Virus record (IMG/VR): IMGVR_UViG_3300024420_000006
Span: 1-40,432 of that record
From: a virus
Lineage: Duplodnaviria > Caudoviricetes
Length of the DNA stretch: 40,432 nucleotides
Reading direction: 5' to 3' (one strand)
Under the pieces are notes generated by a model. It ran no database searches, had not been told where the DNA came from, and was given only the letters and a program-made list of their open reading frames with translations. The position numbers and the translations under genes were made by a program. Position 1 is the first letter of the stretch; each line of letters starts with the position of its first letter. This document shows, one piece after another, positions 14,998 through 35,614 of this stretch.

Positions 14998-15025
14998 ATT
15001 ATATAGAAAAAATAAGATTTGTTTA
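14998..15025 (-). promoter_or_regulatory. Putative middle promoter TAAAC-N17-TATAAT (uvsX)
   Basis: Recurrent bipartite motif. Confidence 0.7.
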
Positions 15026-16672
15026 GTCTATTAATTTATATTTCTTGGATTCTTTTTGTAGCCAATTATCTAATCCTATCTCAAATCTATTTGGTTGCCT
15101 ATGAGATCTTGTTTGGTATTCATGTAAGACTGCCAATTTTTCTTTAATTTTACCGTATGAACCTCCCCAAAGATCTTTAAGTAATTCAAAATCATATTGA
15201 GCTCCTTCTGCCTTTTGAAACTTTCCAATATCTAACGGTCCTCTACTTACACTCCTTAGTGCAAGAGAACATACAAAATATGCTTCATGATAATCACCTC
15301 TCCATGAATAGAAATTTGATAACTTTAAGTAACCTTCTGGTCTAGTAGGATCTGCATCAATTAATCTATGCCACATTCGCCGCTCACAAATATCCCTTCC
15401 TCCTTTCGCTGCAACACAACTACTTACCATAAAATATGCATTATACTGTTCATCTTTATCTTTAGTATATTCACACGCTCTTAAATATAATCCTAACGCA
15501 GAAGCATATTGATTTTCCTGATAATAGGTCTCTGCTAAATTAAAAGCATTTTTACTATCAAATGGATTATTTATAAAATCATATAACTCCTTTCTTTTTG
15601 AGTAAGTATATTTTTTAATAGGCTGAGGTTTATTATCACTGAACCCAATAATATATTCCATTACATCTGGTGGCATTTGTAGAATAAATTGAGTATTATC
15701 CTGAAAACCGAAAGGAATTAAAAACTTTTCACCATCAAATGCCATACCGCATGTAAATTCTATCCTAGCGGTCATAAAATCAAACTCTGGGCTAATGTGT
15801 TTAATATTCCAATCTTTATCCCACATTACGATCCTATGATAATATATAGAATCTTTTCTATCCTCAGGGGTAAACCATAAATCTACTTCATGAATAATAG
15901 CAATCCAATGATCTTTATACTTAATGACATTGGACGAACCTCTCATATCTCTTTTTGTTTTGATGTGAGGTTGTTCTACAAGTTTTATTTGTTCAGACGT
16001 ACCTTCTATGGGATCAATTTTAACTATCTCAGTAGGATTTGCCCACTTTACATAGTGATAAGGCATATCATTTATAGGCATCCAATTTTTTTCACAGTAA
16101 GATCCACCATCTGCATGTGTACGTGGGTCTGGTGGTGATACTCTAACGCGTTCTAATTCTTCATAATTAGTATTTCCTACTTTTGATATAGTAGATAATT
16201 CCATCCTACCTTCACCATTAGTAGTAGTATCTCGTCTTACTCCTGATTGTGTTAATACATTATCCCAATTCTGTAACCTTGCATCTTCTAATCCTATAAA
16301 AGTCCATAAAGGTTTTTTATCAAGTAAATCTGTATTTACCTTACCCCAATCAGATACTTCGTAATCTTCATTCAATTCACAAATATAATTAGTAGTCCTT
16401 AGAACTACATCATCTTCCGGGTTAAGATAAGTCAAAGGCCCCCATGGAGCAGGAAAATTCTGCAAGTTTTCACTGTGGTATAAAAGATAACCTACTCTTC
16501 TTAAATTTAGCATCCATTTATCATTATGCCATAAAATAGAAGAATTGGTTAAACCATCACCTTTAGTTTCTGAAAACGGAATTTTAATTTGAGATATATC
16601 TCCACCATGATCTAATGTAAATTTACATAAGTTTGATAAATCTTTTCTATTTATAACGTCCGGGTTTTTCAT
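15023..16672 (-). CDS. Five-bladed beta-propeller glycoside hydrolase/phosphorylase-like domain plus TPR repeats
   Basis: NSSI, GLEDARL, CEKNWMP, RGSS and IEFTCG (GH130/GH43-clan-like); C-terminal helical TPRs (AFNLAETYY..., DPTRPEGY). Confidence 0.65.
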   Translation of the reverse strand: MKNPDVINRKDLSNLCKFTLDHGGDISQIKIPFSETKGDGLTNSSILWHNDKWMLNLRRVGYLLYHSENLQNFPAPWGPLTYLNPEDDVVLRTTNYICELNEDYEVSDWGKVNTDLLDKKPLWTFIGLEDARLQNWDNVLTQSGVRRDTTTNGEGRMELSTISKVGNTNYEELERVRVSPPDPRTHADGGSYCEKNWMPINDMPYHYVKWANPTEIVKIDPIEGTSEQIKLVEQPHIKTKRDMRGSSNVIKYKDHWIAIIHEVDLWFTPEDRKDSIYYHRIVMWDKDWNIKHISPEFDFMTARIEFTCGMAFDGEKFLIPFGFQDNTQFILQMPPDVMEYIIGFSDNKPQPIKKYTYSKRKELYDFINNPFDSKNAFNLAETYYQENQYASALGLYLRACEYTKDKDEQYNAYFMVSSCVAAKGGRDICERRMWHRLIDADPTRPEGYLKLSNFYSWRGDYHEAYFVCSLALRSVSRGPLDIGKFQKAEGAQYDFELLKDLWGGSYGKIKEKLAVLHEYQTRSHRQPNRFEIGLDNWLQKESKKYKLID

Positions 16673-16692
16673 AATTAATTTTTATTTTTAAT

Positions 16693-17811
16693 CTAAAATA
16701 GACTTGTTGTATAAATTAGATTTCTATTAAATCCTTTAAAGCCCATTGCAGTAACAACACGATTAATTGGATCAAGTATTGTTTTTTCAAATTGTCTATC
16801 ATAATCTATCTTAGGTGCAAATTCATAAGGATAATCACCAGGGGCATAAGCAAACACATCACATGATTTATCCATAGAAAAATACATTTTGCATTTTTCA
16901 CCATTACCCAATGGTTGATATTTACCTTTCTTACCTGAGTTATTTAAAAGATAATTATGATAACCAGCAGACCTTACGCCTATTGGGCATTTAGATGCAA
17001 TTTCAAACGCATCATAATCATTCACAATATACTTTTGATAATTATTTACTTTCCTAGAAAAACTAATTTGATCTACATTGGCTAATCTGAATTGCCTTTT
17101 AATATCTTTAAGTAATGCCGCAAACTTACCCATATCTAATTCATTAACAGAAAAGATATACGTTAATAATTCTTTAAGTTTTTCTCTGGCAAAAATAGGA
17201 GTTGACGATTGTATAATTTCAAAACCTTTTGAACTGATTTTTGAAAGATCATCATAGTGAATATTAGGATCTTTCCAAACAATATTTTGCATATACTTTT
17301 TCTTGGCTAACCATATTGCATTTTTAGCAATACTCTCCAACTCAAATGATAAAAAGTTTTCTGCATTGTTATCATCAGCATATTTTTGAAGAATCTTTTC
17401 AATGTAATCATTTAATCTTACCTCATAAAGCTTAAGTATGAATTCTTTTTCATCACCTTGCCACCCTTCACTCTTTTTAATAACCTCATCAAATTTAACA
17501 TAAACTGAATCCGTATCAATATAAATACCTACAGGTTTTTCAATCTTACCTGTAACAGTTATACCCATTTCAGTATGAGCTGGTATATCTCTATGCCAAA
17601 ATTCTTTAAAATATTTGTTAATAAGTTGTTCAGTATATAAAATAGCATCCTTACCTTGGAGTGTAATGGTTTCTGCTATATCAACATTAAAGAAATAAAA
17701 ATAAGGATTACCGAATGCACCATAGATAGAGTTAAGCATTAACTTAACAGCCTGTTCATAATTATAATACTTAGATGCTTCTTCTTTTATGTTCTGTAAT
17801 TCCTCAGTCAT
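16693..17811 (-). CDS. Family B DNA polymerase, C-terminal half (second finger helix, palm, thumb)
   Basis: Motif B KLMLNSIYGAFGN, AETITLQG, motif C YIDTDSVY, KKKY and KGFEIIQSSTP. Confidence 0.93.
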   Translation of the reverse strand: MTEELQNIKEEASKYYNYEQAVKLMLNSIYGAFGNPYFYFFNVDIAETITLQGKDAILYTEQLINKYFKEFWHRDIPAHTEMGITVTGKIEKPVGIYIDTDSVYVKFDEVIKKSEGWQGDEKEFILKLYEVRLNDYIEKILQKYADDNNAENFLSFELESIAKNAIWLAKKKYMQNIVWKDPNIHYDDLSKISSKGFEIIQSSTPIFAREKLKELLTYIFSVNELDMGKFAALLKDIKRQFRLANVDQISFSRKVNNYQKYIVNDYDAFEIASKCPIGVRSAGYHNYLLNNSGKKGKYQPLGNGEKCKMYFSMDKSCDVFAYAPGDYPYEFAPKIDYDRQFEKTILDPINRVVTAMGFKGFNRNLIYTTSLF

Positions 17812-17818
17812 TTTTATT

Positions 17819-17846
17819 TTTATACGGTAAGATTAGAAAAGGTTTA
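17819..17846 (-). promoter_or_regulatory. Putative middle promoter TAAAC-N17-TATAAA (polymerase C-half)
   Basis: Recurrent bipartite motif. Confidence 0.65.
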
Positions 17847-17871
17847 AAGGGCACCGTTTCTGATGCCCTTT
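17846..17871 (-). terminator. Hairpin after the clamp gene, probable terminator
   Basis: AAAGGGCATC-AGAAAC-GGTGCCCTTT; the U-tract is short. Confidence 0.55.
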
Positions 17872-17890
17872 ATTATATTGGAGTGATTTA

Positions 17891-18640
17891 TTAATCCTCG
17901 TCAGTAATGGCAACAGCCACAGTAAGATGAGTGTTTGTATCTAATGATCTAAAAACCACTTTATTTTCACATACACTTACCTTGTAATTTTCTTTATCTA
18001 AAAGATTAATATATTTCTTATAAATTACAACCTTTGCTCCTTTTTCAACATTTGAATCATAAGAGTGACAAAGTGTAGCATCATAAGAAGTACCTTTAAT
18101 ATTAATTCCTTTTTCACCAATGTAAAGAGTAAAAATATCCTCATCTTTATCAAGGTTAAATAATGATTTCATTTTATCCACATGAGTAGTAAGTAAATCA
18201 AAATCAAACATTTTAGAATCAACACCAAATGCTCTATCTGTTTCTTCTTTGCTCATTTCCATAAATGATAATGATGGATCTGTACATGCCAAATTAATCT
18301 GAAGATCTTCATTTTCTAAAATAAAATCACTTGCCATTAATTCACCATCATATTCGGTATACTTAATTCTACCTTTTACATCACCATTAAAATGGCTTAA
18401 TGCGTCAATAACTTTAGTACCGTTATAAAAACTAACCTTTACCGGTTCTTTAATATCAGCATCAAAAATATCAGAAGTTGGTGTGTTAACCAATTTTACG
18501 GCATCTCTCTCAGGAAAATACACAGAAGATACCGTACCTTCTTTTGCGATTTTCATAAAGATGAATTTGTCAATTGGAAGTAATTTGCGAACGAATGAAC
18601 TTAATTCATAACCGTCAATTTTGTTAATAGTTGTTTCCAT
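17891..18640 (-). CDS. Probable sliding clamp (T4 gp45-like)
   Basis: 249 aa, acidic, with two-domain beta/alpha periodicity and a clamp-like C-terminus (YKVSVCENKVVFRS...VAVA); adjacent to the polymerase. No diagnostic motif. Confidence 0.55.
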   Translation of the reverse strand: METTINKIDGYELSSFVRKLLPIDKFIFMKIAKEGTVSSVYFPERDAVKLVNTPTSDIFDADIKEPVKVSFYNGTKVIDALSHFNGDVKGRIKYTEYDGELMASDFILENEDLQINLACTDPSLSFMEMSKEETDRAFGVDSKMFDFDLLTTHVDKMKSLFNLDKDEDIFTLYIGEKGINIKGTSYDATLCHSYDSNVEKGAKVVIYKKYINLLDKENYKVSVCENKVVFRSLDTNTHLTVAVAITDED

Positions 18641-18661
18641 TTAAAAATTTATTTGTTTATT

Positions 18662-18689
18662 ATTATATTGATTATTGTTACTTAGTTTA
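18662..18689 (-). promoter_or_regulatory. Putative middle promoter TAAAC-N17-TATAAT (clamp)
   Basis: Recurrent bipartite motif. Confidence 0.7.
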
Positions 18690-18691
18690 AG

Positions 18692-19708
18692 CTAGAATAC
18701 AGACTTAGTTTTTAATTCTTTCTTTAAAATAAATCCATTTTTCTGTATGCTTTTAAATGAAGGTGGAGACCAATTTTTATCATAAAGAATATTCTTAAGT
18801 TCATATTTAGCTTCATACTTAAAACCATATCTCCATTCTAACCCTGGTAAAAAATCATTTAACCATAAAGGCTTTTTTACACCTATTGCATAATGAATAA
18901 TAGATGGCACAACAACCTTAAGGTATTTGTCAGGTGGAGTACCAGCCTTCATCATCTTATCTCTATTTTGCATTAGCCTTAAGTCTTTACTATCAGTAAA
19001 TTTAACCTTTCTACCTTCGGCTAAATACCTATGAATGTTAAAATGATGGAATCTCTGTTCTACTGTCCAACTTGTATATCCTGTAAAATTGAAATATTGG
19101 TGATGGATGAATGGGTGCTTCATAAATCTTTCAAAGTAATATTCTAATTTAGGATCCTCGCCATATATGATATTACCGGCATTAATAGAAAGGCCATTCA
19201 TTTGCTCTAATGTAAAATCAGTTTCAAAGATTTCATTAAACGCATCCATTACATCATACTTATCTTTATTTCTAATGTAAAATAGATTTTCTTTTTTAAT
19301 ACCGAACTCTTCGTACTCATCCCACATGTAACTTAAGTCATTTAAGATAAATACATCATCATCAGATACTAATGTTCTCTTTACTCCAAATTTTTCTTTT
19401 AGGTATATAGGCATTAAGATTTTAAATAGACATCCATGACTTAATAAAAATTCTTTTGACTTACCTTCATAGCCATGTTTCTTAATATAGTAATCATAAA
19501 GATCATTAAGAATAATAATTTGAGCATTTTTAAATATATCTAAATCGTGCTCTTTAAAAATACCAGCAAGTTTATCTAAATCTATTTTAGTATCATCCAC
19601 AAATAGGTAAATATCAAACTTCTCCTTTATCCCTTTAGGATAATAACTACATAAGATATTTGTAAACTCTAGACTGGATACGCCTATTGCTAAAGCTTTA
19701 TCTTTCAT
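18692..19708 (-). CDS. GT-A fold glycosyltransferase-like protein (GT8-like)
   Basis: DxD motif LVSDDDVFIL, INAG, EQ, and C-terminal IIHY...KP; last gene of the modification operon. Confidence 0.65.
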   Translation of the reverse strand: MKDKALAIGVSSLEFTNILCSYYPKGIKEKFDIYLFVDDTKIDLDKLAGIFKEHDLDIFKNAQIIILNDLYDYYIKKHGYEGKSKEFLLSHGCLFKILMPIYLKEKFGVKRTLVSDDDVFILNDLSYMWDEYEEFGIKKENLFYIRNKDKYDVMDAFNEIFETDFTLEQMNGLSINAGNIIYGEDPKLEYYFERFMKHPFIHHQYFNFTGYTSWTVEQRFHHFNIHRYLAEGRKVKFTDSKDLRLMQNRDKMMKAGTPPDKYLKVVVPSIIHYAIGVKKPLWLNDFLPGLEWRYGFKYEAKYELKNILYDKNWSPPSFKSIQKNGFILKKELKTKSVF

Positions 19709-19710
19709 AA

Positions 19711-20973
19711 TTAAATTATACTTTTTACTTTATACTTCTTTTTTGGTTTAGCACCTAATTCTTCAGATGCTATAACTTTTTGATTTGTGTTATCCTGTTT
19801 TAAGAAAGTGTAATTTGTCATCTTGGCATTTCCTTCACAGAATTTTTTAACTTCATTAGCCATATCCATCGCAGTGGTAACTGGTACATTTTGTGCAATG
19901 TGATTAACTTGGCGAGAAGATTCAATTTTAAAATCTAAAGGTAAACCCATTAAGTGCATCATTTCTCTTACATTTAGATAACGGTTTTCAATTGGGTGAA
20001 CACCATTAAACATATTTCTACCAATAAGAGCAGAAAAAGAATCATGGAAGAAATGTGGAGATGCATCCCAATAACCTAATCCTTGGCTTGTTTTATATTG
20101 TTGATGCTCTAACATATCAATAAAAGTCTTTGTAGATTTTTTATTTGAAAAACCTCTTTTAGGATAATGTTTTTCTAACCATTTAATACAGTCATCAATC
20201 AGATCGTTATTTTCTAAATATTGTGCAATGGTTCCTTTTTTAAATTTTGCAGCAAACTCAGCATGAGTTAATCCTTCTTTTTCTAAAACATATTCATAAG
20301 GCTTAAAGTGATCAGTAACCTTTCCTTCTACCATAAACATATCTTGTTGTGTAGCATCTTCAGGAATTTCTTTTAAATAATCAATAAGATTTTTCTTTTC
20401 TCTAAATTTCCAATTTAACATTGGAACTGTTGGTGTATTCCAAAAGAAGTAAAAGGTTCTCATTCTTCTCTGAGGAATTCCATGAAGTTCAGTATTTGTT
20501 TTAATAAGAGAAAAACTATATCCGTATTTCTGGCCTATTTCTTTTAACCTATCAACAACACCTTCTCCCATTTTAGTAAAAAGACCTGGGGCATTTTCAC
20601 CCCAAAGAACTTTAGGCTTAACATGTTCTAAAATATACTCTGAGGAATTATACATCCATTGATTTTGAGTAGCACCAGATCCTCTTGATGCAGCAGTACC
20701 TTTTGCAGAATTTAATTGTGATAAACCTGCACAAGGGCAAACTGAATTTACATAATCAACTTCATTAAAAGTTTGTTTAGGTATATCTAAATCTTCATGA
20801 TCTAATCTGTACATTGGTACATCCGGCCAATATTTTTCAATATGACTTTCGTTTGCAGCAAATGCATCATAACTTAAATGAAATGCCGGTTCATTACCTG
20901 CAGATTTTTTACATCCTATAGCACTACCACCAATTAGTGGAATTATAGTACCCCATTTTAATTCTTTTCCCAT
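19711..20973 (-). CDS. Atypical C5-cytosine DNA methyltransferase-like enzyme
   Basis: Motif IV CPCAGLS, motif VI GENAPGL, motif VIII HGIPQRRMRTF and motif IX RYLNVREMMHLMGLP are intact. Motif I reads IIPLIGG and motif X reads AQNVP, both non-canonical. Confidence 0.85.
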   Translation of the reverse strand: MGKELKWGTIIPLIGGSAIGCKKSAGNEPAFHLSYDAFAANESHIEKYWPDVPMYRLDHEDLDIPKQTFNEVDYVNSVCPCAGLSQLNSAKGTAASRGSGATQNQWMYNSSEYILEHVKPKVLWGENAPGLFTKMGEGVVDRLKEIGQKYGYSFSLIKTNTELHGIPQRRMRTFYFFWNTPTVPMLNWKFREKKNLIDYLKEIPEDATQQDMFMVEGKVTDHFKPYEYVLEKEGLTHAEFAAKFKKGTIAQYLENNDLIDDCIKWLEKHYPKRGFSNKKSTKTFIDMLEHQQYKTSQGLGYWDASPHFFHDSFSALIGRNMFNGVHPIENRYLNVREMMHLMGLPLDFKIESSRQVNHIAQNVPVTTAMDMANEVKKFCEGNAKMTNYTFLKQDNTNQKVIASEELGAKPKKKYKVKSII

Positions 20974-20974
20974 A

Positions 20975-21997
20975 TTAAATTTTTACTTTTTCAATTTCTA
21001 GATCCTCCATAAATGTTAAAGGATCAATTGTACCTTCACTGATTTCATTTTCAAGATATACTATAGTTTCTTTTATAGTATCTTTAATATCTTTTTTAGG
21101 TTCCCATCCCATTGATTTAGCCTTGGAAATATCTCCACGAATATTTAATGCTTCACCTGCAATCGGATCATAATGATCAAAAGGTATTTCACCAACACCC
21201 ATAATATCACCAATCATATTTTTAAGTTCCATTAAGTTAGTCATTTTACCTGTTCCTAAATTAAATGTTTGGTTTGCAGTATCCTCATTTTCCATACAAA
21301 GAATATGGAATGCATTAACATCAGATACATCAATGTAATCTCTTGCTTTCATATAGTCACCAAATACAATAGGATTATGACCGCCTTTAATTCTTAAGAT
21401 AAATCCTGCAAATACTGGTGGGATGGTTCTATTATAATCTTGTAAAGGCCCAGCTACATTAAAGTATCTTAGTGCAGTATAATTTAATCCTTTAGTTCTT
21501 TGATATGATTCTGCTAATAATGCAAGACATGCTTTAGTAGTAGAGTATACAGTAGTTGGATCTGATTGAGTTTCACTAAAGCCTTCATCTGGCATTTCAC
21601 AGTTTTCATATACGGCAGAAGTTTCACTAAAGATGATTCTTTTTACATCAGCCTTTAAGCACCCATTCATTACATTAATACTTCCTAATATATTATTATC
21701 TACTGCTTCATATGGATCTTCATTACAGTCATAAATAGAAACAAGACCAGCAAAATGATAAACATAATCAGGTTTAAATTCCTCTATAATGTTTTCCACA
21801 TATTGATTTCTAATATCTACTTTATGAAAATTTTCAATTTGGTCATGAACTTTAGGTATATATGTACCATGTTCCATATTATCAATAACAGCAATACATT
21901 TAGGATTATGACCTCTATTTAATAAATCGTTGATAAAATTTGTTCCAACGAACCCAGCTCCACCGGTGACCAGGATTTTTGTTTCAGAATTATACAT
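20975..21997 (-). CDS. NAD-dependent nucleotide-sugar epimerase/dehydratase (GalE-like SDR)
   Basis: TGGAGFVG, YSTTK (YxxxK), LRYFNVAG and RDYIDVSD. Confidence 0.93.
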   Translation of the reverse strand: MYNSETKILVTGGAGFVGTNFINDLLNRGHNPKCIAVIDNMEHGTYIPKVHDQIENFHKVDIRNQYVENIIEEFKPDYVYHFAGLVSIYDCNEDPYEAVDNNILGSINVMNGCLKADVKRIIFSETSAVYENCEMPDEGFSETQSDPTTVYSTTKACLALLAESYQRTKGLNYTALRYFNVAGPLQDYNRTIPPVFAGFILRIKGGHNPIVFGDYMKARDYIDVSDVNAFHILCMENEDTANQTFNLGTGKMTNLMELKNMIGDIMGVGEIPFDHYDPIAGEALNIRGDISKAKSMGWEPKKDIKDTIKETIVYLENEISEGTIDPLTFMEDLEIEKVKI

Positions 21998-23255
21998 TTA
22001 CAGTTTCAGTTTTTGTTACACGTTCATAAGCTTCCCAGATTTTGTTATCTACATGTTCTCCAGTATAATAAGAATCTTTAAGATACTTTTCTTGGAGGTT
22101 ATAGAATAATTTCTTATAATGCTCTGGGTTTGCATTTAAGAATTCAATCTTCTTTTTTAAATCTTCTGGTGATTTACATCTAATAAAGTGACCTTCAGGA
22201 AACACATTAAAGTCAGTATCGTAAGATGGGTGTAAGAAAGGTATTATACCATAATGTAACATTTCTGCATATTTAGAAGTGACCATACCTTCTTTAATAG
22301 GAACGCAGAATGTATATTTGGTACTAAGTAATTCATCGGTCATTGTTTCAATTCTTGTTTCACCTTTAAACCATTTAGGATATTTTTCTTTAATCTCATC
22401 ATCCCATTTTCCGTAAATATCAGTTTCAATATCTTGATCAACGATATACTCTTTTACTGGATCCCATCGGTCCATTCCGCCTGATCCTTTACCTTGATTT
22501 TGTAGCATCATAAATGAATTTGTCTTTTTCATTTCAAACAATTCATCTGTGTTATATCTTTTCTTATCTAAAAGAAATACCGTTTCAATACCAGAATATT
22601 CATAAGTTGATGTTATCTTTGCAGTATCTCGGAGTGGAGGATTGCAAAAATATTCTTCTTCTTTAGTAAATGTATTTTGTGCTAAATAATAAGTAGGTCT
22701 ATTATTAATTCCCCAATCTTTACATGCAAGAATATATCGGTTATCTACAAGTAATCCGACAATAGGAACTTTCTTTTCCAGTTCATTCATTGCTTTAATA
22801 ATTGGAGCTGCATAGTACTTAAAGAAGTCTAATGATTTAACTTGACCAGTACCATCTTTCTTGTTAATATATTCTGGAATATTAACAGTACTAGTCGGCC
22901 CAGTATAAAAGAAAATGTAATCCAAATCTAAACCTTGAATAATTTCAACAGTTTCATCGGTAGACTTTCTCTCTTTCATAGTAGAGTGAAATTCCTTAAT
23001 ATTGTTAGGCACAGTAGGTTCATCCGTTTGCGGTGGACCAAATAAAGAATTTACTTTTGGTTTTTGTTTTGCCCTAAACTTTCCTAAATCATTAGGGCTT
23101 AATAGCCAATATTCAATATTAGGATTTCTGTTTGCAATTGAACAAATTAATTGCTTAGGTTCACAATCTCCACCGATTGCACTCCAACTGTTTTCATTAA
23201 ACTTAATGGCTTTACCTAATTTAAAAAAGCCAATCTTTTTTACATTTTCTTTCAT
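21990..23255 (-). CDS. DNA beta-glycosyltransferase-like protein (T4 BGT family, GT-B)
   Basis: Colinear by-eye matches to T4 BGT: KIGFFKLG/KIAIINMG, LLVDNR/LFTDIR (catalytic Asp), NNRP/KNRP, YEYSGIE/FEYFPIE, VTSKYAEML/ITLRVWETM and YDT/FDT. Confidence 0.75.
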   Translation of the reverse strand: MKENVKKIGFFKLGKAIKFNENSWSAIGGDCEPKQLICSIANRNPNIEYWLLSPNDLGKFRAKQKPKVNSLFGPPQTDEPTVPNNIKEFHSTMKERKSTDETVEIIQGLDLDYIFFYTGPTSTVNIPEYINKKDGTGQVKSLDFFKYYAAPIIKAMNELEKKVPIVGLLVDNRYILACKDWGINNRPTYYLAQNTFTKEEEYFCNPPLRDTAKITSTYEYSGIETVFLLDKKRYNTDELFEMKKTNSFMMLQNQGKGSGGMDRWDPVKEYIVDQDIETDIYGKWDDEIKEKYPKWFKGETRIETMTDELLSTKYTFCVPIKEGMVTSKYAEMLHYGIIPFLHPSYDTDFNVFPEGHFIRCKSPEDLKKKIEFLNANPEHYKKLFYNLQEKYLKDSYYTGEHVDNKIWEAYERVTKTETVNV

Positions 23256-23256
23256 A

Positions 23257-23964
23257 TTAACAATTTTGAATAATGTCTTCTATTACTTGTTTATCTTGTT
23301 CATATGTTAGATCATACCAACATATATTTAATTCTTCAAATTTTAAATTATCCATCGAGTTTATAAGATGAGTAATTTCATATTCATTTCTATTTGATAA
23401 TTTAATACTGCTTAAGTTATCAAATGCTTCTTTTGCAAATATCATATATCCACAGAAGTATCTTCCGTTTACTACGCCATGAGGTTTTTCAATAACTACA
23501 TCCTCTAGGATAGTAGCAAGTTGTAAATTCCTTGCTCTAGTTTCATAATCCTTATAAGTAACTACAGTATTATTTGGATCATGATATTCTAAACCAATAT
23601 TACCTTGATAATAATTATCACCAAAGAGACATAAGAAAGGTTCATAAAATTTACCTTCCCATGCTTTAATTGCAGCACCCGGTCCGTATTCATCATCCTT
23701 TTGGAATTCATAATAAATGTTTATCTTTTCTTTATACTTAGATAAACTTTCAATAATAGGATGAGATAATTTAGTATTTCTTCCTTTAAAAAAGAAGTCA
23801 GATTTGCTTATAGTAACATATACATCTTCTATTCCATTTTCAATACAGAATTCTACACAATACTGAATTGTTGATTTTCCTAAAATTGGATCTATAAGTT
23901 TATTTGATCCATACCTAGTAGACCTTCCGGCTGCTAGAATAATTGCTTTTCTTACTCTGCTCAT
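23257..23964 (-). CDS. Sugar-phosphate nucleotidyltransferase (RmlA-like)
   Basis: AIILAAGRSTR, FGDN, IEKP, SNRNEYEIT and WYD. Confidence 0.9.
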   Translation of the reverse strand: MSRVRKAIILAAGRSTRYGSNKLIDPILGKSTIQYCVEFCIENGIEDVYVTISKSDFFFKGRNTKLSHPIIESLSKYKEKINIYYEFQKDDEYGPGAAIKAWEGKFYEPFLCLFGDNYYQGNIGLEYHDPNNTVVTYKDYETRARNLQLATILEDVVIEKPHGVVNGRYFCGYMIFAKEAFDNLSSIKLSNRNEYEITHLINSMDNLKFEELNICWYDLTYEQDKQVIEDIIQNC

Positions 23965-24707
23965 TTGCTATATTTAATTTCTAATTCGTCAAATAATTCA
24001 TGCCCTTTCTTAAGAAACATACCGGCCAATTCATATCTTTCATTTAACTCAAAGAAAGGTACTGCTCCTAGTAAATGGACTGCTAAAAAGAATTTTAATT
24101 GATATTCATCATACCATTCATACATTATGTTTTCTGCTTCTCTACAGAACTTAAGATATTTAGAATTCCTTTCATTGTATATATGGGCCTCATATTTCAT
24201 TACAAACGATTGCATCAGTTTTCCATAATCATAATAATTCTGTTCTTCAGTACCTCTAGGATCAATAAAAATAAAATCATTATCATATAAGATATTGCTT
24301 ACTGTTAAATCACCATGAACAAAACCCCAACCTGAAGAAGCATCTAAATTACCTTCATAAGTATACCCGGTTCTTCCTTCTAATTTATCTAAATAAGATC
24401 TTGTATCTACATCAGTACCATAACCATCAAAATCATTTACAATATGAATAAGATCGTCTAATTGATCAATTGATTTAATTAAAGGTTGTTCACAGATTTT
24501 ATCATACCATGTAGGGTACTTATCCATTTCAAATGAAGTATCAGATAAAGGTCTTATCTTAATAAAATTAGGGTGAGTACAATTGGCTAACCAATCCATC
24601 TGCTGTTTGAATTTTATTGGATAAACACCAGCTTCTTTAACTACCTTATTATCATGGAGATAAACGCGATCTCCACTATTTCCTACTAAAACTTTACCAG
24701 TATGCAT
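23961..24707 (-). CDS. APH/choline-kinase-fold phosphotransferase (putative sugar kinase)
   Basis: GNSG, HGDLTVSNIL, FIDPRG and YDYGKLMQS. Confidence 0.85.
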   Translation of the reverse strand: MHTGKVLVGNSGDRVYLHDNKVVKEAGVYPIKFKQQMDWLANCTHPNFIKIRPLSDTSFEMDKYPTWYDKICEQPLIKSIDQLDDLIHIVNDFDGYGTDVDTRSYLDKLEGRTGYTYEGNLDASSGWGFVHGDLTVSNILYDNDFIFIDPRGTEEQNYYDYGKLMQSFVMKYEAHIYNERNSKYLKFCREAENIMYEWYDEYQLKFFLAVHLLGAVPFFELNERYELAGMFLKKGHELFDELEIKYSK

Positions 24708-25237
24708 TTCATATTATTTTTAAGTGCGAATGTTGAATCTACTTCTGAATCACCAACCATAAGAAAATCTTTAGGTTCATAATCATCAAAGGTTTCAAAA
24801 ATTAAATCTGCCATATCTGAATGTGGCTTTTTATTAACTACATCATCTCTTGTTACAATCATGTCGAATAAATCGGTACTTATATTATGATAAGACATAA
24901 TTCTATCTACATTTTCTTTAGATGAATTAGATGCAATAATAACCTTTTCAAATTTAGAATTTTCAATAATCCATAAAAGTAATTGATTAACTTTAGTTTT
25001 ATAAAGATTCTTTGAAAAAATTTCTCTTTTATAATTTTGTGCTAAATTTGATTCAACTTTAGTTAATTGATATTTCTTTAAAAGAACATCCATACCATAA
25101 TTAATATCTGCCATTATGGTCTCTAATGGAATTTCTCTTTTTAAGACTCTCTCCAGCGCACGCCTCCAAGAATCTGCATGAGTATCTATTGTAGAAACTA
25201 ATGTATCATCAAAATCTAATATTAAGCACCTCTCCAT
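24686..25237 (-). CDS. HAD-superfamily phosphatase/mutase
   Basis: LDFDDTLV, IASN, KKPHSD and MVGDSEVD. Confidence 0.9.
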   Translation of the reverse strand: MERCLILDFDDTLVSTIDTHADSWRRALERVLKREIPLETIMADINYGMDVLLKKYQLTKVESNLAQNYKREIFSKNLYKTKVNQLLLWIIENSKFEKVIIASNSSKENVDRIMSYHNISTDLFDMIVTRDDVVNKKPHSDMADLIFETFDDYEPKDFLMVGDSEVDSTFALKNNMKCILVKF

Positions 25238-25256
25238 TTAATCTGTTTGATTTATT

Positions 25257-25284
25257 ATTATATAGAGGTTTTTAAAAAGGTTTC
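25257..25284 (-). promoter_or_regulatory. Putative middle promoter GAAAC-N17-TATAAT heading the modification operon
   Basis: Recurrent bipartite motif, immediately downstream of a terminator. Confidence 0.7.
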
Positions 25285-25306
25285 AAGTAAATAGGACAAT
25301 AAAAAC

Positions 25307-25341
25307 TAAAAAAGGACTACCTAGTTAAAGATAGTCCTTTT
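25307..25341 (-). terminator. Intrinsic terminator after the Hc1-like gene
   Basis: AAAAGGACTATCT-TTAACT-AGGTAGTCC followed by TTTTTTT. Confidence 0.85.
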
Positions 25342-25359
25342 AAATGAGTTTATGTAAGA

Positions 25360-25536
25360 TTACATATTGTTTTTAGTTTCCTGTACGTGTAGTCTTAATT
25401 CTTGTGCAAGATTTTTAACTTCCTGCATTGATTTTCTAATTCTTACAGCAGCAGCTTTATTTCCTTTCGCGTAAAATTTATCCACGTCTTCGCTTACTGA
25501 TTCGATTAAAGCTTTGATTTCTTCAAATTTTTCCAT
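25360..25536 (-). CDS. Histone H1-like (Hc1-family) small protein, 58 aa
   Basis: Below the ORF-track cutoff: MEKFEEIKALIESVSEDVDKFYAKGNKAAAVRIRKSMQEVKNLAQELRLHVQETKNNM. KGNKAAxxRxRK is the Hc1 signature. Confidence 0.88.
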   Translation of the reverse strand: MEKFEEIKALIESVSEDVDKFYAKGNKAAAVRIRKSMQEVKNLAQELRLHVQETKNNM

Positions 25537-25558
25537 AATAGTTAATTTTTATTGTTTT

Positions 25559-25569
25559 TTTATATATTC
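25559..25569 (-). promoter_or_regulatory. Putative late promoter GAATATATAAA upstream of the Hc1-like gene
   Basis: Same motif as upstream of the head genes. Confidence 0.6.
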
Positions 25570-25570
25570 A

Positions 25571-26473
25571 TTAGAATTTACCTTTTCTGTTTCGATAGAA
25601 ACTAGTTAATCTAGGTATGTACATATACTTATGACCTTTATCTTTAATTGCTTTCATCATTCTATTAAACATATCAACATCAGCTGCATTTGTTTTAGAT
25701 AAAGGTATTTTAGGTGCAGTGTTTGCTTGTTGTGAAGCATCTCTATATCTTAAATCACCACACATACTTGGCCTCCATGAAACAGCAGAGTGGCTAACAT
25801 CACCATGAGTATAACCTAAATTATTAGGCTCTATTGTTGTGGTATGTCTTTCTTCTCTTGGTTGATACATAAACTTTTTAGAACTGTTTGTTGCATCTAC
25901 CTTTTTACGGCTTCTTGTAAATACATAAGCTAATTCAGGATATTGAGTATATGCCTTTGCTAAAAGTTCTAAATGATCTGGTGTCCACTTATCGTCATGA
26001 TCAATTCTTACAATATAATCACATCCATCGTTCTTTGCCATTTGAAGACCTTTATTCATTGCACCACATCCTGCAGTATATCTAAATTGTTGTTTAGTAA
26101 ACCCTTTATCTCTTTCACCTGGTGTTGATAAGTTATGATACTTAATTTTACCTTTTGGGATTACTTCATCCATGACGGTTTTTATTTCTTCATCACCATC
26201 ATATTTATCACCAACTAAATAAACTACATAATTGTCATATTTCTGATTCTTTATAGATCCTAAAGAATCTCTAAGTAAAGAAGGTGTATCCATAAATTTC
26301 TGTCTACTTGTTTGGGCACCACCATCAGATATTTTATGAGTAGGCATTACAATACCGAACTTAATCTTTTTATCAATTTCACTAGATAGATTTTTTTCTA
26401 GTAAAATTTCAAAGTTCTTAGAACCTATATAAGATTCTAATAAGTTAAAATCATCAAAGGATATCGCTCTCAT
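25571..26473 (-). CDS. Glycosyltransferase family 2
   Basis: GIVMPTH, SIKNQKY, AMNKGL, RIDHDDKW (DxD) and ADVDMF. Confidence 0.88.
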   Translation of the reverse strand: MRAISFDDFNLLESYIGSKNFEILLEKNLSSEIDKKIKFGIVMPTHKISDGGAQTSRQKFMDTPSLLRDSLGSIKNQKYDNYVVYLVGDKYDGDEEIKTVMDEVIPKGKIKYHNLSTPGERDKGFTKQQFRYTAGCGAMNKGLQMAKNDGCDYIVRIDHDDKWTPDHLELLAKAYTQYPELAYVFTRSRKKVDATNSSKKFMYQPREERHTTTIEPNNLGYTHGDVSHSAVSWRPSMCGDLRYRDASQQANTAPKIPLSKTNAADVDMFNRMMKAIKDKGHKYMYIPRLTSFYRNRKGKF

Positions 26474-27585
26474 TTATCAAAAAATGTTTTTATAGACTTT
26501 ATTATTCTTTTTAAATCTTTATCTGTTAAATCAGATCCTGAAGGTAAACATATACCTTGTAAGAATAATAGAGCACTGTTTCCATTTATATATTTCCGAT
26601 ACTGGGTTAAGATTGGCTGTTGGTGCATAGGCTTCCAAATGCGCCTAGCTTCAATATTATCTTTCTCCAAATGTTTAATAAGATCTTCCGGTCTATCTTC
26701 AGCTTTTAATACTGCACAAGTTAACCAGCAATTTGATCTATCACTATCACTTTCACTTTGAAATGAATAAAAGTAATCACCTAATTCTTTTCTATAAGTT
26801 TCATTTATTTTTCTAGTTCTTTTAATTCTATTTTCAATAACTTCCATTTGCCCTATACCTATTGCAGCAAGAACATTACTCATTCTATAGTTATAACCTA
26901 TTTCAGTATGATGATAGAAAGGCATTGAATCTTTTGCTTGTGTTGATAAAAACCTCATCTTATCAGCTTTTTGTTTGTCATCGGTTATTATCACTCCACC
27001 ACCTGAGGTAGATAATAATTTATTTCCGTTAAAAGAATAAATGCCAATATCACCAAAGGTTCCAGTATGTTTATTATTTGTTGTAGAACCAAGACTCTCT
27101 GCTGCGTCTTCAATAATAGGTATGTCATATTCATCTGATAATTTTTTAATTGCTTTCATATTACAAGGTACACCGAAAATATGTACCGGGATAATTGCTT
27201 TAGGTTTTTTACCTATAGCGGTTGAATTAAGTATTGCGGTTTCCAATAAAATAGGATCCATATTCCATGTACCTTCTTCTGAATCTATAAATATAGGTTC
27301 AGCCCCACAATAAATAATAGGATTTACTGTTCCTATAAAAGTTAGAGATGAACATAAAACAAAATCCCCCTCGCTTACGCCTAATGCCCTTAATGCTAAA
27401 TGAATACCTGCAGTTCCTGAAGTAACAGCCACTGCATGCTTTGTACCAGTATATTCTTTTACCATATCCTCAAATTTATTTAAATGAGGTCCTACTGGTG
27501 CGATCCAATTTTGATCAAATACTTCTTTAATGTATTCCAATTCTTTGCCTGACATATGAGGCGGTGATAAGTAAATCTTTTTCAT
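26470..27585 (-). CDS. DegT/DnrJ/PglE-family PLP sugar aminotransferase
   Basis: IYLSPPH, SGTAGIHLAL, EDAAESLG, SFNGNK, GYNYRMSN and CLPSGS. Start moved to the MKKIYL ATG at 27585. Confidence 0.93.
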   Translation of the reverse strand: MKKIYLSPPHMSGKELEYIKEVFDQNWIAPVGPHLNKFEDMVKEYTGTKHAVAVTSGTAGIHLALRALGVSEGDFVLCSSLTFIGTVNPIIYCGAEPIFIDSEEGTWNMDPILLETAILNSTAIGKKPKAIIPVHIFGVPCNMKAIKKLSDEYDIPIIEDAAESLGSTTNNKHTGTFGDIGIYSFNGNKLLSTSGGGVIITDDKQKADKMRFLSTQAKDSMPFYHHTEIGYNYRMSNVLAAIGIGQMEVIENRIKRTRKINETYRKELGDYFYSFQSESDSDRSNCWLTCAVLKAEDRPEDLIKHLEKDNIEARRIWKPMHQQPILTQYRKYINGNSALLFLQGICLPSGSDLTDKDLKRIIKSIKTFFDK

Positions 27586-27586
27586 A

Positions 27587-27970
27587 TTAATTAATTTTGT
27601 CCCATTTATCATCTGAGTCTAATCTAAAAGAACCTATGTAAATTTGATTCCATTCGTCTGGTCCTATCAAAGATAAAAATAAGGTCTCATCATTTTCTCT
27701 CTGATATAAATAATAAGCCTTTCCTTTTATAGGTTTAAATCTAAAATCACTACTATAAACTAATTCATTCCACTCATAAGATTCTAATAGCTTTTTATAT
27801 TCCTCCTTTATCTCATCAAATCTTGCTTTAAAATATTGATTAGTTTTTATAACTTTTTCATTTTTATATGCAGAAATATTTGTAGGTCTAATAGCAGGAG
27901 CTCCTACACTGTCACCATAAGGCATAATAGCTTTATTTTCTGCAAACATATCTGGTTTATCTTTTCCCAT
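27587..27970 (-). CDS. DUF2452-like protein
   Basis: PYGDSVGAPAI, FKPIKGKAYYLY and LSLIGPDEW. Confidence 0.7.
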   Translation of the reverse strand: MGKDKPDMFAENKAIMPYGDSVGAPAIRPTNISAYKNEKVIKTNQYFKARFDEIKEEYKKLLESYEWNELVYSSDFRFKPIKGKAYYLYQRENDETLFLSLIGPDEWNQIYIGSFRLDSDDKWDKIN

Positions 27971-27971
27971 A

Positions 27972-28508
27972 TTATTTTATTTTTGCTGGATTTCCGTATG
28001 CAGTTGAATTATCAGGTATATCTTTTGTTACTACTGAACCTGCACCTATCATACAATTTTTCCCAATTTTTATATAAGGTAGTACTACTGAACCTGCACC
28101 AATAAAACTACCTTCCCCAACTTTAACCCCGCCGCATAAAGTTGCATTAGGTCCTATAAAGGAAAAGTCTCCTAATTGACAATCATGATCAACAGATGCA
28201 GCAGTATTAATAATGCAATGTTTACCTATCTTAGTATCTATTTGAACTACAGCACTTTGTAATATCTGACTCCCTTCACCAATATCATAATTAGATATAA
28301 TTGCAGAATCTGATATAACTGTTACATATTCTATTTCACCTAGTACCTCATCGGCTATTCTCTTTCTGGATTTATTATTGCCTATTGCTATAACCCAAGG
28401 ACCTTGTTGTAAATCAAAATCTTCATCGTTATAAAAACTTATTTGGCTACCACCTAAAACAGAACTAACCACCTTTGCATGACCACCTTTACCGTAAATA
28501 TTAATCAT
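27972..28508 (-). CDS. NeuD/PglD-family sugar acetyltransferase
   Basis: YGKGGHAKVV, IAIGNN, INTAASVDHDC, hexapeptide repeats and GNPAK. Likely start is MINIYG at 28508. Confidence 0.92.
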   Translation of the reverse strand: MINIYGKGGHAKVVSSVLGGSQISFYNDEDFDLQQGPWVIAIGNNKSRKRIADEVLGEIEYVTVISDSAIISNYDIGEGSQILQSAVVQIDTKIGKHCIINTAASVDHDCQLGDFSFIGPNATLCGGVKVGEGSFIGAGSVVLPYIKIGKNCMIGAGSVVTKDIPDNSTAYGNPAKIK

Positions 28509-29556
28509 TACTTTCTCTTTTAAATTCTGGTACAATACTCTTCATTAATAAAAGTATTTTATAAAAATCATTTAATCTGATTTTTGATAATTTTTCTATT
28601 TTAGGAATAATAGTTTTAAAATCATAATCAATATGATTCAGCTTCATAATATTATGATCATCAGTTGGTATCATATTTTCACCATTACATAATAGCTCTT
28701 CATATAATTTTTCACCTGGTCTTAAACCTATGTATTCAATTTTAGCATCACTATTAAAATGCTTAATTAAATTTTTAGCTAAATCAGTAATACTAACAGG
28801 TTCTCCCATATCAAATAAAAATACTTCTCCACCTTTACCTAGTGCACTTGCCTGTAAAACTAATTGACATGCCTCAGGTATAGTCATAAAGTATCTAATT
28901 ACCTCTCTGTGAGTGACACTTACAGGTCCTCCTCTTTCAATTTGTTTTATAAATGTTGGAATTACTGAACCTTCAGATCCTAATACATTACCAAATCTTG
29001 TAATTATAAAATTTGTGGCAGATTTTGTTTCTAAGAATTGTGTATATAATTCTGCAATTCTTTTTGTAGCCCCCATTACATTTGTAGGATTAACTGCTTT
29101 ATCGGTAGAAACCATTATAAATTTTTCTACCTCATTCATATAGGCAATATTAGAAACATTCATAGTTCCTAATACATTAGTTTTTATTGCTTCTATTGGG
29201 TTAGCCTCCATCATAGGTACATGCTTATAAGCAGCAGCATGAAAAACTATATTAGGCTTAAATGAATCAAAAACTTCTTCAAGTCGATACTTATCTCTTA
29301 CATCGCCTATTACATATTTAATATGAGACTTAGGAAATGATCTACTTATTTCTTGCTCCAAATGAAACATTGAAGCTTCGGCATTATCATAAACCGTAAC
29401 AGTACTAGTACCAAAGCTTATTAATTGTCTTACTATTTCACTCCCTATTGAACCGGCACCACCAGTTACTAATACTCTTTTTCCTTTTATGTAATCTTGG
29501 ATTGAATTAAGATCGGTAGATATAGGATCTCTTCCAAGTAATTTATTATAATCCAA
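28501..29556 (-). CDS. UDP-GlcNAc 4,6-dehydratase (PglF/CapD catalytic domain, no membrane anchor)
   Basis: LLGRDP, TGGAGSIGSE, HAAAYKHVP, STDKAVNPTNVMGATK, RFGNVLGS and GLRPGEKLYEEL. Confidence 0.93.
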   Translation of the reverse strand: MDYNKLLGRDPISTDLNSIQDYIKGKRVLVTGGAGSIGSEIVRQLISFGTSTVTVYDNAEASMFHLEQEISRSFPKSHIKYVIGDVRDKYRLEEVFDSFKPNIVFHAAAYKHVPMMEANPIEAIKTNVLGTMNVSNIAYMNEVEKFIMVSTDKAVNPTNVMGATKRIAELYTQFLETKSATNFIITRFGNVLGSEGSVIPTFIKQIERGGPVSVTHREVIRYFMTIPEACQLVLQASALGKGGEVFLFDMGEPVSITDLAKNLIKHFNSDAKIEYIGLRPGEKLYEELLCNGENMIPTDDHNIMKLNHIDYDFKTIIPKIEKLSKIRLNDFYKILLLMKSIVPEFKRESND

Positions 29557-30031
29557 AATCCTTAAACTTTAAAATATGAAACTCCTTTTCTAGTAATCCT
29601 TTTCCGACTAAATTATTAATAACAGATAATTGTGATTTCATTACCCTTTTTATTGCTTCCTTATAGTCCATAAAACCGGCCCAATCTACTTCTTCTACTT
29701 GTAATTGTTTTTTAGGAACCTTTAAATCTTTTAAGCCTATTTGATTTAAATCATCTATCTTCACTACATAATAGTAAACAATTTTTGTATACTTATATTT
29801 TCTTGTTGTTAAAGTAAATGTATATTCGGTTTTATCTATAAGATTTTTCGGTACACTTATTCCTACTTCTTCTTTTGTTTCCCTAATCGCAGCATCTAAC
29901 TTAGATTCACCTTCTTCAATACCACCTTTAGGAATTCCATAAGATCCATACCAGCCTCTGTTTGTTGTATGGGCTAATAAAACTTTATTATCATATATGA
30001 TCGCTAATCCTGCAGAAGTTTTGGTTTTCAT
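29546..30031 (-). CDS. NUDIX hydrolase
   Basis: Nudix box GGIEEGESKLDAAIRETKEEVG. Confidence 0.92.
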   Translation of the reverse strand: MKTKTSAGLAIIYDNKVLLAHTTNRGWYGSYGIPKGGIEEGESKLDAAIRETKEEVGISVPKNLIDKTEYTFTLTTRKYKYTKIVYYYVVKIDDLNQIGLKDLKVPKKQLQVEEVDWAGFMDYKEAIKRVMKSQLSVINNLVGKGLLEKEFHILKFKDFGL

Positions 30032-30774
30032 ATATTATTTATTTGAGACACTAACCAGTCTAATTCTACTTGGCTACCAGAGTCAGATATTGCATTATCA
30101 GGATCTGGGTGTGTTTCAATAAATGAACCATCATATTCAAAAATCTTTGCAGCTTGTGCATATTGTTTTGCTAACTTACGGCTACCACCAGTTATGCCGT
30201 CGCCTGCCATTTGGGTTGAATGAGTGCAATCTAAAATAACTTTATCTGCAAATTTTTTCATTACATCAACTCCTCTAAAATCTACAATAAGTCTATCATA
30301 TCCAAAATTAGATCCTCTTTCAGTTACCCATACTTCACAGTTAGGATCTACTTCTTTTATTTTTGTAACTGCATGATTCATTGCTTCAGCAGATAACCAT
30401 TGACCTTTCTTAATATTAATAATATTAAAATTTTTAGCACATTCAACTAAAAGATCTGTTTGTCTACATAAGAATGCTGGTATTTGAATAACATCTACTA
30501 CTTCGGATAGCGGTAAAGCCTGAGAAGGTTCATGAATATCTGTTATGATTTTAATATCAGGATAGTAATGTTTAACTGTTCTCATGATTTCCATCCCTTC
30601 CTCTAAACCAGGACCTCTATCAGAATGTATAGAAGTTCTGTTTGCTTTATCAAAAGAACCTTTTAAGTACCAATTTTTATCTCCCATCCAAGCATCTAAT
30701 GTTTTTGCCACAGTTAAGAAGTTATCCTCATTTTCAATGCTACAAGGTCCAAGTATATAAGTATAGTCTTTCAT
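30028..30774 (-). CDS. kdsA: KDO-8-phosphate synthase
   Basis: GPCSIE, KGSFDKANRTS, QIPAFLCRQTDLL, KKGQ, ERG, DCTHS and ETHPDPDNAISD. Confidence 0.93.
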   Translation of the reverse strand: MKDYTYILGPCSIENEDNFLTVAKTLDAWMGDKNWYLKGSFDKANRTSIHSDRGPGLEEGMEIMRTVKHYYPDIKIITDIHEPSQALPLSEVVDVIQIPAFLCRQTDLLVECAKNFNIINIKKGQWLSAEAMNHAVTKIKEVDPNCEVWVTERGSNFGYDRLIVDFRGVDVMKKFADKVILDCTHSTQMAGDGITGGSRKLAKQYAQAAKIFEYDGSFIETHPDPDNAISDSGSQVELDWLVSQINNI

Positions 30775-30786
30775 AATGTATTATTA

Positions 30787-30814
30787 ATTATACATAAAAT
30801 ATTATCTTTGTTTC
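30787..30814 (-). promoter_or_regulatory. Putative middle promoter GAAAC-N17-TATAAT heading the kdsA-pgl operon
   Basis: Recurrent bipartite motif. Confidence 0.7.
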
Positions 30815-30826
30815 ATTAAAGAAACA

Positions 30827-35105: not shown

Positions 35106-35133
35106 TTTATAAGTAAAAATTAATAATTGTTTT
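35106..35133 (-). promoter_or_regulatory. Putative middle promoter AAAAC-N17-TATAAA (polymerase N-half)
   Basis: Recurrent bipartite motif. Confidence 0.6.
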
Positions 35134-35614
35134 CTTGTCTGTTCCAATTCTCTTCATTTTTAGAGAGATAGTAATTATAGAACTCTTGTGGTGTTACACC
35201 TATGGCCAAACCTGCATTAAATACAAAGTGCATAACATCGATCCATTCCATTTTTAATTCTTTTAAATCTCCTGGAGTTAAATCTGATAATTTTTGTTTT
35301 CTTATTTCAGGGTTTGCAGATTTCCAAGGTTTCCATGCAGCATTACCTTCACCATCTTCAATACCACCTACAGCATCCATCATTTCATGTAATTCATCAA
35401 TAATTGCATGATTGGTTACCATAAGAAAATCTACAACATCACCTATGGTAAATTCGGAAAAAGGTTTTCTACCTTGTTTCTCAAAATACATAGATTGTGT
35501 TTTTGCTTGGAGTGAATAAAGATCTTCTAATGAATTTTTAGAATGATCATAACCGTTCTCTGAAAAGTAATCTCTTACCTCGAGATCTTTACATTTATTA
35601 TCAATGTTAGCCAT
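35120..35614 (-). CDS. All-alpha dimeric dCTPase/dUTPase (T4 gp56-like)
   Basis: DELHE, WKPWK, MEWIDVMHF and KNEENWNRQ. Confidence 0.85.
   Translation of the reverse strand: MANIDNKCKDLEVRDYFSENGYDHSKNSLEDLYSLQAKTQSMYFEKQGRKPFSEFTIGDVVDFLMVTNHAIIDELHEMMDAVGGIEDGEGNAAWKPWKSANPEIRKQKLSDLTPGDLKELKMEWIDVMHFVFNAGLAIGVTPQEFYNYYLSKNEENWNRQENNY

Follow-up and report, generated by a model that had tools for sequence, protein, structure and literature searches.

A putative sugar-supply and sugar-transfer operon for hydroxymethylcytosine DNA in a T4-like phage, and the C5-methyltransferase-like family it contains

This report describes a seven-gene operon in a viral DNA stretch of 40,432 nucleotides (IMG/VR record IMGVR_UViG_3300024420_000006; Duplodnaviria, Caudoviricetes), hereafter called the window. 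To judge by its genes for a portal protein, a helicase, UvsX, a split polymerase B, and a ribonucleotide reductase, it stems from a large T4-like phage, of which the record comprises only this 40.4 kb fragment. Between 25237 and 18692, seven open reading frames (ORFs) follow one another on the minus strand, encoding in order a HAD-family phosphatase, an APH-fold kinase, a sugar-1-phosphate nucleotidyltransferase, a GT-B glycosyltransferase (GT) resembling T4 β-glucosyltransferase (BGT), a short-chain dehydrogenase/reductase (SDR) epimerase, a C5-cytosine-methyltransferase (MTase)-like enzyme, and a GT-A glycosyltransferase. They are packed as tightly as the initial annotation of this sequence had stated, with spacings of -22, -4, +1, -8, +1, and +2 bp. 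Also supported is its view of an operon that modifies DNA, provides its own nucleoside diphosphate (NDP)–sugar, and encodes an atypical C5-MTase and two GTs, one of them BGT-like. We consider it probable that the operon covers the sugar side, both supply and transfer, of a T4-style pathway to glycosylated hydroxymethylcytosine (hmC). The sequences show gene content, residues, linkage, and folds as predicted, and from these we infer the reactions, the sugar, and the binding to the sliding clamp.

The limits of the transcription unit agree with the promoter motif and upstream terminator proposed earlier. A terminator-like hairpin (25310..25341, minus strand; 13 pairs plus a T tail, a consensus match only) would close the upstream unit, and a sigma70-like promoter motif (25257..25286, minus strand; 11/12 matches) is found 20 bp before the HAD start. 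It scores best among the 75 such sites in 16000-31000, a number that is not enriched over shuffled sequences (mean 89.7); what is informative about the motif is where it lies and how it ranks. The next intergenic hairpin downstream (17845..17872, minus strand; 11 pairs plus a T tail) comes only after a probable sliding clamp gene, and the transcript therefore probably holds eight genes, clamp included. The clamp ORF (17891..18640, minus strand), likely co-transcribed, begins 51 bp past the GT-A gene and has no Pfam match; its label comes from its position and a weak Atlas lead, namely one cluster at 0.95 with gp45-slide_C in 10% of members. Behind it lies the C-terminal half of the split family B polymerase gene (16693..17811, minus strand). 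Across 27 distinct loci spanning HAD to clamp, the order of the six genes other than GT-A is constant, with all seven genes in 17 loci and GT-A missing from 10. Conservation of the gene order in relatives thus holds for a six-gene core and fails for GT-A.

The initial gene labels hold as well, by Pfam for the HAD protein, the nucleotidyltransferase, the epimerase, and the C5-MTase, by Atlas for the kinase, and by predicted folds for both GTs. The phosphatase (183 aa; 24686..25237, minus strand like all operon genes; Pfam HAD_2, E 1e-21) likely acts on a sugar bisphosphate, by analogy with AfhF (PMC13326640). The kinase (248 aa; 23961..24707) matches Pfam APH weakly (E 0.009), and its Atlas neighbours at 0.97 carry APH in 60-80% of members; it is likely a sugar-1-kinase and has no match in cultured phages. 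The nucleotidyltransferase (235 aa; 23257..23964; Pfam NTP_transf_3, E 2.5e-7) looks GlmU/RmlA-like in NCBIfam, under the cut-off. The GalE-like NDP-sugar epimerase (340 aa; 20975..21997; Pfam Epimerase, E 7e-48) has a uridine diphosphate (UDP)-glucose 4-epimerase as top Protein Data Bank (PDB) match (E 7e-42) and reaches no NCBIfam cut-off. In distant phages (XG4, Enterococcus phage 9183, and loci L031 and L038), the window's GT-B family is accompanied by a fused NTP-kinase, a small HAD protein, and a thymidylate-synthase homolog with Asp at position 177 (Asp177 synthase). The window's separate kinase and nucleotidyltransferase resemble that fused type only weakly, with a weak match of the kinase to the fusion of L031. 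A SIS isomerase occurs in two of five relatives, far from the operon, and from its sequence we take it to be KdsD-like, beside a presumed KdsB-like gene. In RB69-type phages, the combination of HAD, kinase, and NTP transferase leads from arabinose 5-phosphate to UDP-arabinose (PMC13326640), and DNA GTs dependent on an epimerase have been published as well (10.1101/2023.12.21.572611). Because the operon has a dedicated sugar pathway plus an epimerase, host UDP-glucose is an unlikely donor, and a non-glucose sugar is plausible from the gene content.

The GT-B enzyme (421 aa; 21990..23255) was modelled with AlphaFold from a 19-sequence alignment (pLDDT 85.8). The top six Foldseek matches of the model are all T4 BGT (E 4e-11 to 6e-9), followed by BshA (1e-7), and a two-sequence profile test gives an alignment with BGT (E 1e-4) but none with AGT. 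D171 of the enzyme aligns with D100 of BGT, the catalytic base there, and its E331 with BGT E272. From the model, it is predicted to be a DNA hmC glycosyltransferase. The optional GT-A enzyme (338 aa; 18692..19708; model pLDDT 88.8) is GT8-like, its Foldseek matches being XXYLT1, LARGE1, glycogenin, and LgtC, at TM-scores of only 0.40-0.47 that leave the CAZy family unsettled. An Asp triplet at 116-118, with D117 and D118 invariant among 58 sequences, provides the expected DxD motif. The enzyme has no match in cultured phages and likely adds a second sugar.

With regard to the acceptor for these sugars, the window indeed holds neither a deoxycytidine monophosphate (dCMP) hydroxymethylase nor a TET/JBP gene (no Pfam match to thymidylate synthase or Tet_JBP among its 42 ORFs). 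The first 6000 bases of the window are 100% identical to contig G017, a further 13,596 bases of which differ at 2 positions, and the final 8972 bases of G017 show 1 mismatch to contig G019. We read this chain of overlaps (99.99% identity) as a single genotype. G019 carries, 29.3 kb outside the window as counted from its left end, genes for two nucleotide kinases (one guanylate-kinase-like, the other a dNMP kinase) and next to them the gene for a synthase of 302 aa, which has T4 dCMP hydroxymethylase as its top PDB match (E 8e-24). Its S101, D151, C154, and D185 correspond to gp42 S94, D145, C148, and D179, and the equivalent of Y96 is kept too. It thus carries the dCMP-hydroxymethylase signature, in which one Asp stands three positions ahead of the catalytic Cys and another at ThyA position 177. 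D145 is a hallmark of hydroxymethylases (PMC6400193), and Asp at position 177 is tied to the use of dCMP (PMC8670742). In the long relatives, a divergent thymidylate-synthase homolog lies ~45-55 kb downstream in eight of the nine records searched (4/4 and 4/5), and the single one without it ends ~47 kb past the MTase. In locus L155, an ATP-grasp protein follows the hydroxymethylase.

Within the window itself, a gp56-like dCTPase/dUTPase (35120..35614, minus strand) has best phage matches annotated as gp56/dCTP pyrophosphatase and is 34% identical to T4 gp56 and 37% to RB49 gp56. Such a resemblance is not diagnostic by sequence alone, and the DNA of RB49 is not known to contain hmC; the enzyme would clear dCTP from the pool. 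Next to it stands a gene for an Fpg/Nei-family glycosylase (35658-36494, minus strand), and genes of this family occur close to the modification genes of phage G and locus L120, too. No Tet_JBP protein was found among the 42 window ORFs, 30 ORFs of G019, and 4 plus 5 related records, which are partial and were searched with a control lacking a true positive. All in all, the handle likely comes from a T4-type hydroxymethylase encoded beyond the contig. The initial annotation had called the operon self-contained and had foreseen that a gp42 or TET homolog elsewhere in the genome would reduce it to a variant of a known pathway; the gp42 homolog exists in the same genotype, and the term self-contained is not supported.

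The mechanism that we propose is thus a variation on that of T4. A gp42-type enzyme outside the contig would lead to hydroxymethylcytosine being placed in DNA at replication. Four operon enzymes (kinase, HAD phosphatase, nucleotidyltransferase, and epimerase) would produce an NDP-sugar, from which the BGT-like enzyme would transfer the sugar to hydroxymethylcytosine, and the GT8-like enzyme, where present, could add a second one. T4 shares the hydroxymethylase with its four signature residues, the BGT-fold transferase, and, at the level of the protein family, the kinases and the gp56-like pyrophosphatase. The window phage differs in its own NDP-sugar pathway, epimerase, GT8-like second transferase, and C5-MTase-like gene, in the distance of ~49 kb between hydroxymethylase and operon, and in the polymerase-like tails discussed below, which the T4 GTs lack. 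The Afh pathway of RB69, DLP3, and HY126 likewise feeds DNA GTs through a kinase, a HAD protein, and a nucleotidyltransferase (PMC13326640). Here, however, kinase and nucleotidyltransferase are separate and only weakly like the fused type, an epimerase and an MTase are added, and of the UDP-arabinose set the three families are present, with the isomerase lying far away and in only two of five relatives. Subclass II of the C5-MT/TET/GT systems also has a C5-MTase, an epimerase, and a GT side by side (10.1101/2023.12.21.572611), whereas no Tet_JBP was found in our (partial) records and a pre-replicative hydroxymethylase is present. The same preprint already noted that GT-B genes can neighbour those for a thymidylate synthase, a clamp, an epimerase, an APH kinase, or a methyltransferase.

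A further feature may connect these enzymes to the sliding clamp. The C-terminal half of the polymerase terminates in TSLF and the GT-A enzyme in KSVF. After clustering at 70%, a C-terminal [LVT]F is seen in 26/46 MTase/GT clusters as compared to 14/457 other clusters, in all seven GT-A clusters, and in no kinase, HAD, NTP, SDR, or synthase cluster. The GT-B enzyme of the window has no such tail but an SLFG in a low-confidence loop, where LFG recurs in 73/74 ORFs of the clade (duplicates kept). From these peptides, it seems likely that both transferases and the MTase-like enzyme dock on the sliding clamp. Polymerase-like tails also end a topoisomerase subunit in L155 (entries L155:4866-6743 and L155:10927-12219) and two window proteins (10817-11314 and 4053-4529).

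Several observations weigh against the docking, and against the glycosyl-hmC pathway as such. The motif was picked after seeing the data and the clusters are not independent; the MTase of the window ends in SII, which is not a strict tail, and only 31 of 132 full-length representatives have one; T4 BGT and AGT lack it; and the clamp itself is recognized only by the position and weak lead given above. As for the GT-B enzyme, its fold match to T4 BGT is modest (TM 0.50-0.55, 11-14% identity), and a PDB profile search with its alignment missed BGT, returning only a fucosyltransferase at E 0.02. Finally, the clade also has ketodeoxyoctonate (KDO), bacillosamine-like, and other glycan genes, so surface glycans could be the target of GT-A and of part of the NDP-sugar supply.

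The most unusual member of the operon is the C5-MTase-like enzyme (420 aa; 19711..20973; Pfam DNA_methylase, E 8e-22). Its family comprises 433 clusters at E under 1e-30, and residue conservation was taken from the best 150 representatives. The canonical Cys (PC), Glu (EN), and two Arg are present, and C81, E126, R170, and R172 are invariant in 150/150. The canonical S-adenosylmethionine (SAM) motifs, on the other hand, are absent. Motif I, which is FxGxGG in canonical C5-MTases, reads IPLIGG here, and motif X reads AQNVP versus GNAVP in the alignment with HaeIII. This rewritten cofactor pocket is itself conserved (P12 97%, L13 99%, N41 92%, Q361 96%, N362 93%), and the MTase domain remains intact in zinc-finger fusions outside phages. 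Cultured phages also encode members of the family, among them cyanophage S-TIM5 (YP_007006143.1, 31% identity), which shows no GT in the 17 kb inspected, and Bacillus phage G (gp301, 26%); no characterisation of either enzyme was found in our literature searches. Phage G (locus L081) also has an Asp177 synthase, a HAD protein, an NTP transferase, and a GT of the AGT-like kind. Pseudoalteromonas phage XG4 (locus L078) is likewise cultured and likewise combines the MTase with a GT, genes for sugar activation, and a synthase of the Asp177 type.

The family often keeps company with hydroxymethylases. Among 33 distant MTase loci (duplicates kept), an Asp177 synthase lies within 10 kb in 18 and elsewhere on the record in 3 more, and the decorating partner alongside is BGT-like, AGT-like, or HMUDK-like. 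The exceptions are three partial records of 70-155 kb with an MTase and no Asp177 synthase, as well as the complete S-TIM5 genome, where the family supplies the sole C5-MTase and the only thymidylate synthase is canonical. The DNA of S-TIM5 is reportedly methylated at purine-C. No mention of this methylation was found in PMC10452541 and PMC12801897, which name S-TIM5.

With a hydroxymethylase at hand, the MTase-like enzyme is not needed for the handle. We give about even chances to its being a broad-specificity C5 methyltransferase that would cap those cytosines that escaped hydroxymethylation, resulting in a mosaic of 5-methylcytosine (5mC) and glycosyl-hmC. In favour of methylation are S-TIM5, with this family as its sole C5-MTase, only a canonical thymidylate synthase, and DNA reported to be methylated, and the intact domain of the zinc-finger fusions. 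Three points speak against such simple methylation: motifs I and X have been rewritten, and motif II probably as well; full replacement by hmC would leave the enzyme without substrate; and in P0425 a single protein unites HMUDK_hel, a hydroxymethyl-pyrimidine DNA kinase domain, with the MTase. CpG depletion was considered as a clue to specificity and set aside, as the values (0.42 in the window, 0.28-1.07 in MTase phages, 0.49-0.66 in related phages whose MTase belongs to a different clade) are confounded by lineage and GC content. Palindrome avoidance was dropped too, because it does not separate MTase phages from T4 or RB49. GATC is nearly absent in L031 and L078 (0.08 and 0.15 of expected).

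Alternatively, the pathway may be the same with another chemistry for this enzyme, which after its attack on C6 would remove or exchange the hydroxymethyl group of hmC or transfer a non-methyl group from a non-SAM donor. We regard this as possible, if rather doubtful. In its favour are cofactor-free reactions of C5-MTases on hmC, the invariant catalytic core combined with a changed yet conserved pocket, the recurrent nearby hydroxymethylase (whatever the decorating enzyme), the P0425 fusion, and the two divergent MTase paralogs that stand in tandem in L113, L119, and L121, where an Asp177 synthase and a GT resembling AGT lie next to them. The carboxymethyltransferase CmoX of Synechococcus phage S-B43 provides a precedent, since this phage enzyme has the C5-MTase fold, an altered cofactor site, and another donor (PMC12783734). 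However, CmoX requires an arginine at a position where 96% of the present family has Gln (Q361 by motif X alignment, and neither Arg nor Lys), no CmoA or CmoY is annotated among the window ORFs, no single cofactor-making gene recurs beside the MTase, and S-TIM5 has the family without any hydroxymethylase. Fusion to, or adjacency with, an HMUDK-helical protein is seen in P0425, L115:8553-9998, L131:6750-8255, L128, and L130. HMUDK-type loci also hold an inositol-1-phosphate synthase, an FkbM methylase, and an SDR, with two sulfotransferase-like genes in L131, and perhaps represent a different hmC decoration, maybe with inositol phosphate.

Another reading, which we consider unlikely, leaves only the MTase to act on DNA and has GT-A and the sugar genes serve the glycosylation of virion proteins or of glycans on the host surface. 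The neighbourhood does suggest such a role, since the stretch 25571-30774 (minus strand) encodes KdsA, Nudix, a PglF-like dehydratase, a NeuD/PglB acetyltransferase, DUF2452, a LegC-like (DegT-type) aminotransferase, and a GT2 enzyme, and GT-A resembles glycan and protein GTs. Yet this upstream cluster, which likely serves surface or virion glycans itself, is separated by the terminator and varies among relatives, whereas the six-gene core is invariant. In addition, the GT-B enzyme is nearest to BGT, and GT-A carries the polymerase-like tail throughout.

The new route suggested initially, in which the operon needs no outside help and its MTase-like enzyme creates the handle on DNA, we judge very unlikely. 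In its favour, the MTase and the GT-B enzyme are tightly coupled in 27/27 loci of the clade, the pocket is altered, and both enzymes occur without any thymidylate-synthase homolog in a record of 155 kb (65% complete). The gp42-type enzyme in the same genotype and in eight of nine long relatives nevertheless offers another source of the handle, and the window contains the gp56-like pyrophosphatase. In Enterococcus phage 9183, moreover, a gene of the hydroxymethylase type neighbours the same GT-B family, and the 21 kb inspected there hold no MTase. A 5-hydroxycytosine handle as in RB69, leading to arabinosyl-hydroxycytosine, would fit the shared three-enzyme sugar activation logic and the KdsD-like isomerase of some relatives but is highly improbable, as the D169N hallmark of 5-hydroxycytosine (5hodCMP) synthases (PMC13326640) occurs in none of the 83 synthase motif matches across all loci (duplicates included), 79 of which combine Asp(-3), Asp169, and Asp177 and 4 of which are canonical.

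Some other genes around the operon deserve mention. The glycan and modification genes lie between the two halves of the family B polymerase (33691-35097 and 16693-17811, minus strand), which they separate by 16 kb. Just before the terminator lies a gene for a 58 aa histone H1-like Hc1 protein (25360-25536, minus strand; Pfam E 1e-23). On the far side, 15023-16672 and 12640-13482 (minus strand) encode a TPR protein with a weak β-1,4-glycosyltransferase match and an FkbM methyltransferase, both of which vary among relatives.

The MTase family also reaches beyond phages. Its top-scoring representatives are long proteins on single-gene contigs; the idea that they were phage fusions was rejected when they proved eukaryote-like. 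We examined 68 of these long relatives (7 plus 61 of 120 listed); their expanded clade, the closest to the window enzyme outside phages, comprises P0190-P0193, P0215, P0231, and P0357-P0417. At least 60 aa follow the MTase domain in 54 of them (one being a phage protein), C2H2- or CXXC-like patterns appear in 48 of these 54, and all five MTase motifs are kept in 41. Pfam zinc-finger matches were obtained for 2/10 and 5/26 scanned proteins, one above the cut-off (zf-CXXC, P0193). The zinc-finger proteins are 47-60% identical to the window enzyme, and two are EukProt entries from assembly GFUD01, the transcriptome of the copepod Neocalanus flemingeri (PMC8176732). In a quick tree, the 11/11 sampled zinc-finger MTases form one group (SH-aLRT 94) within a clade (97) that includes the window lineage, and a second quick tree agrees on the placement. 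Judging from these sequences, transfer of the MTase from phage to copepod is the simplest, and a probable, reading, although the copepod transcriptomes may instead contain a transcribed virus or symbiont. We found no published description of the MTase family or its copepod branch in a literature coverage that is thin for subscription papers.

In short, a glycosyl-hmC variant of this kind predicts that a widespread group of phages shields its DNA from restriction and CRISPR nucleases with yet another sugar coat, encoded by a small gene set that could be rebuilt in E. coli. The main value lies in the MTase-like family, which is large, has a distinct pocket, and is kept across unrelated phages though little role is expected for it in an hmC genome. 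A bolder view, to which we attach a rather low probability, is that the family founds a non-methyl C5 chemistry or hmC editing at the replication fork and that its lineage gave copepods a fused, expanded enzyme. If true, abundant marine animals would carry a phage-derived DNA-modifying system. A bacterial N4C methylase has been recruited in rotifers (cited in PMC11292947); the copepod capture, if confirmed in a genome, would be a second case of a foreign DNA-modifying enzyme in animal chromatin and would offer an independent place to read the product of the MTase.

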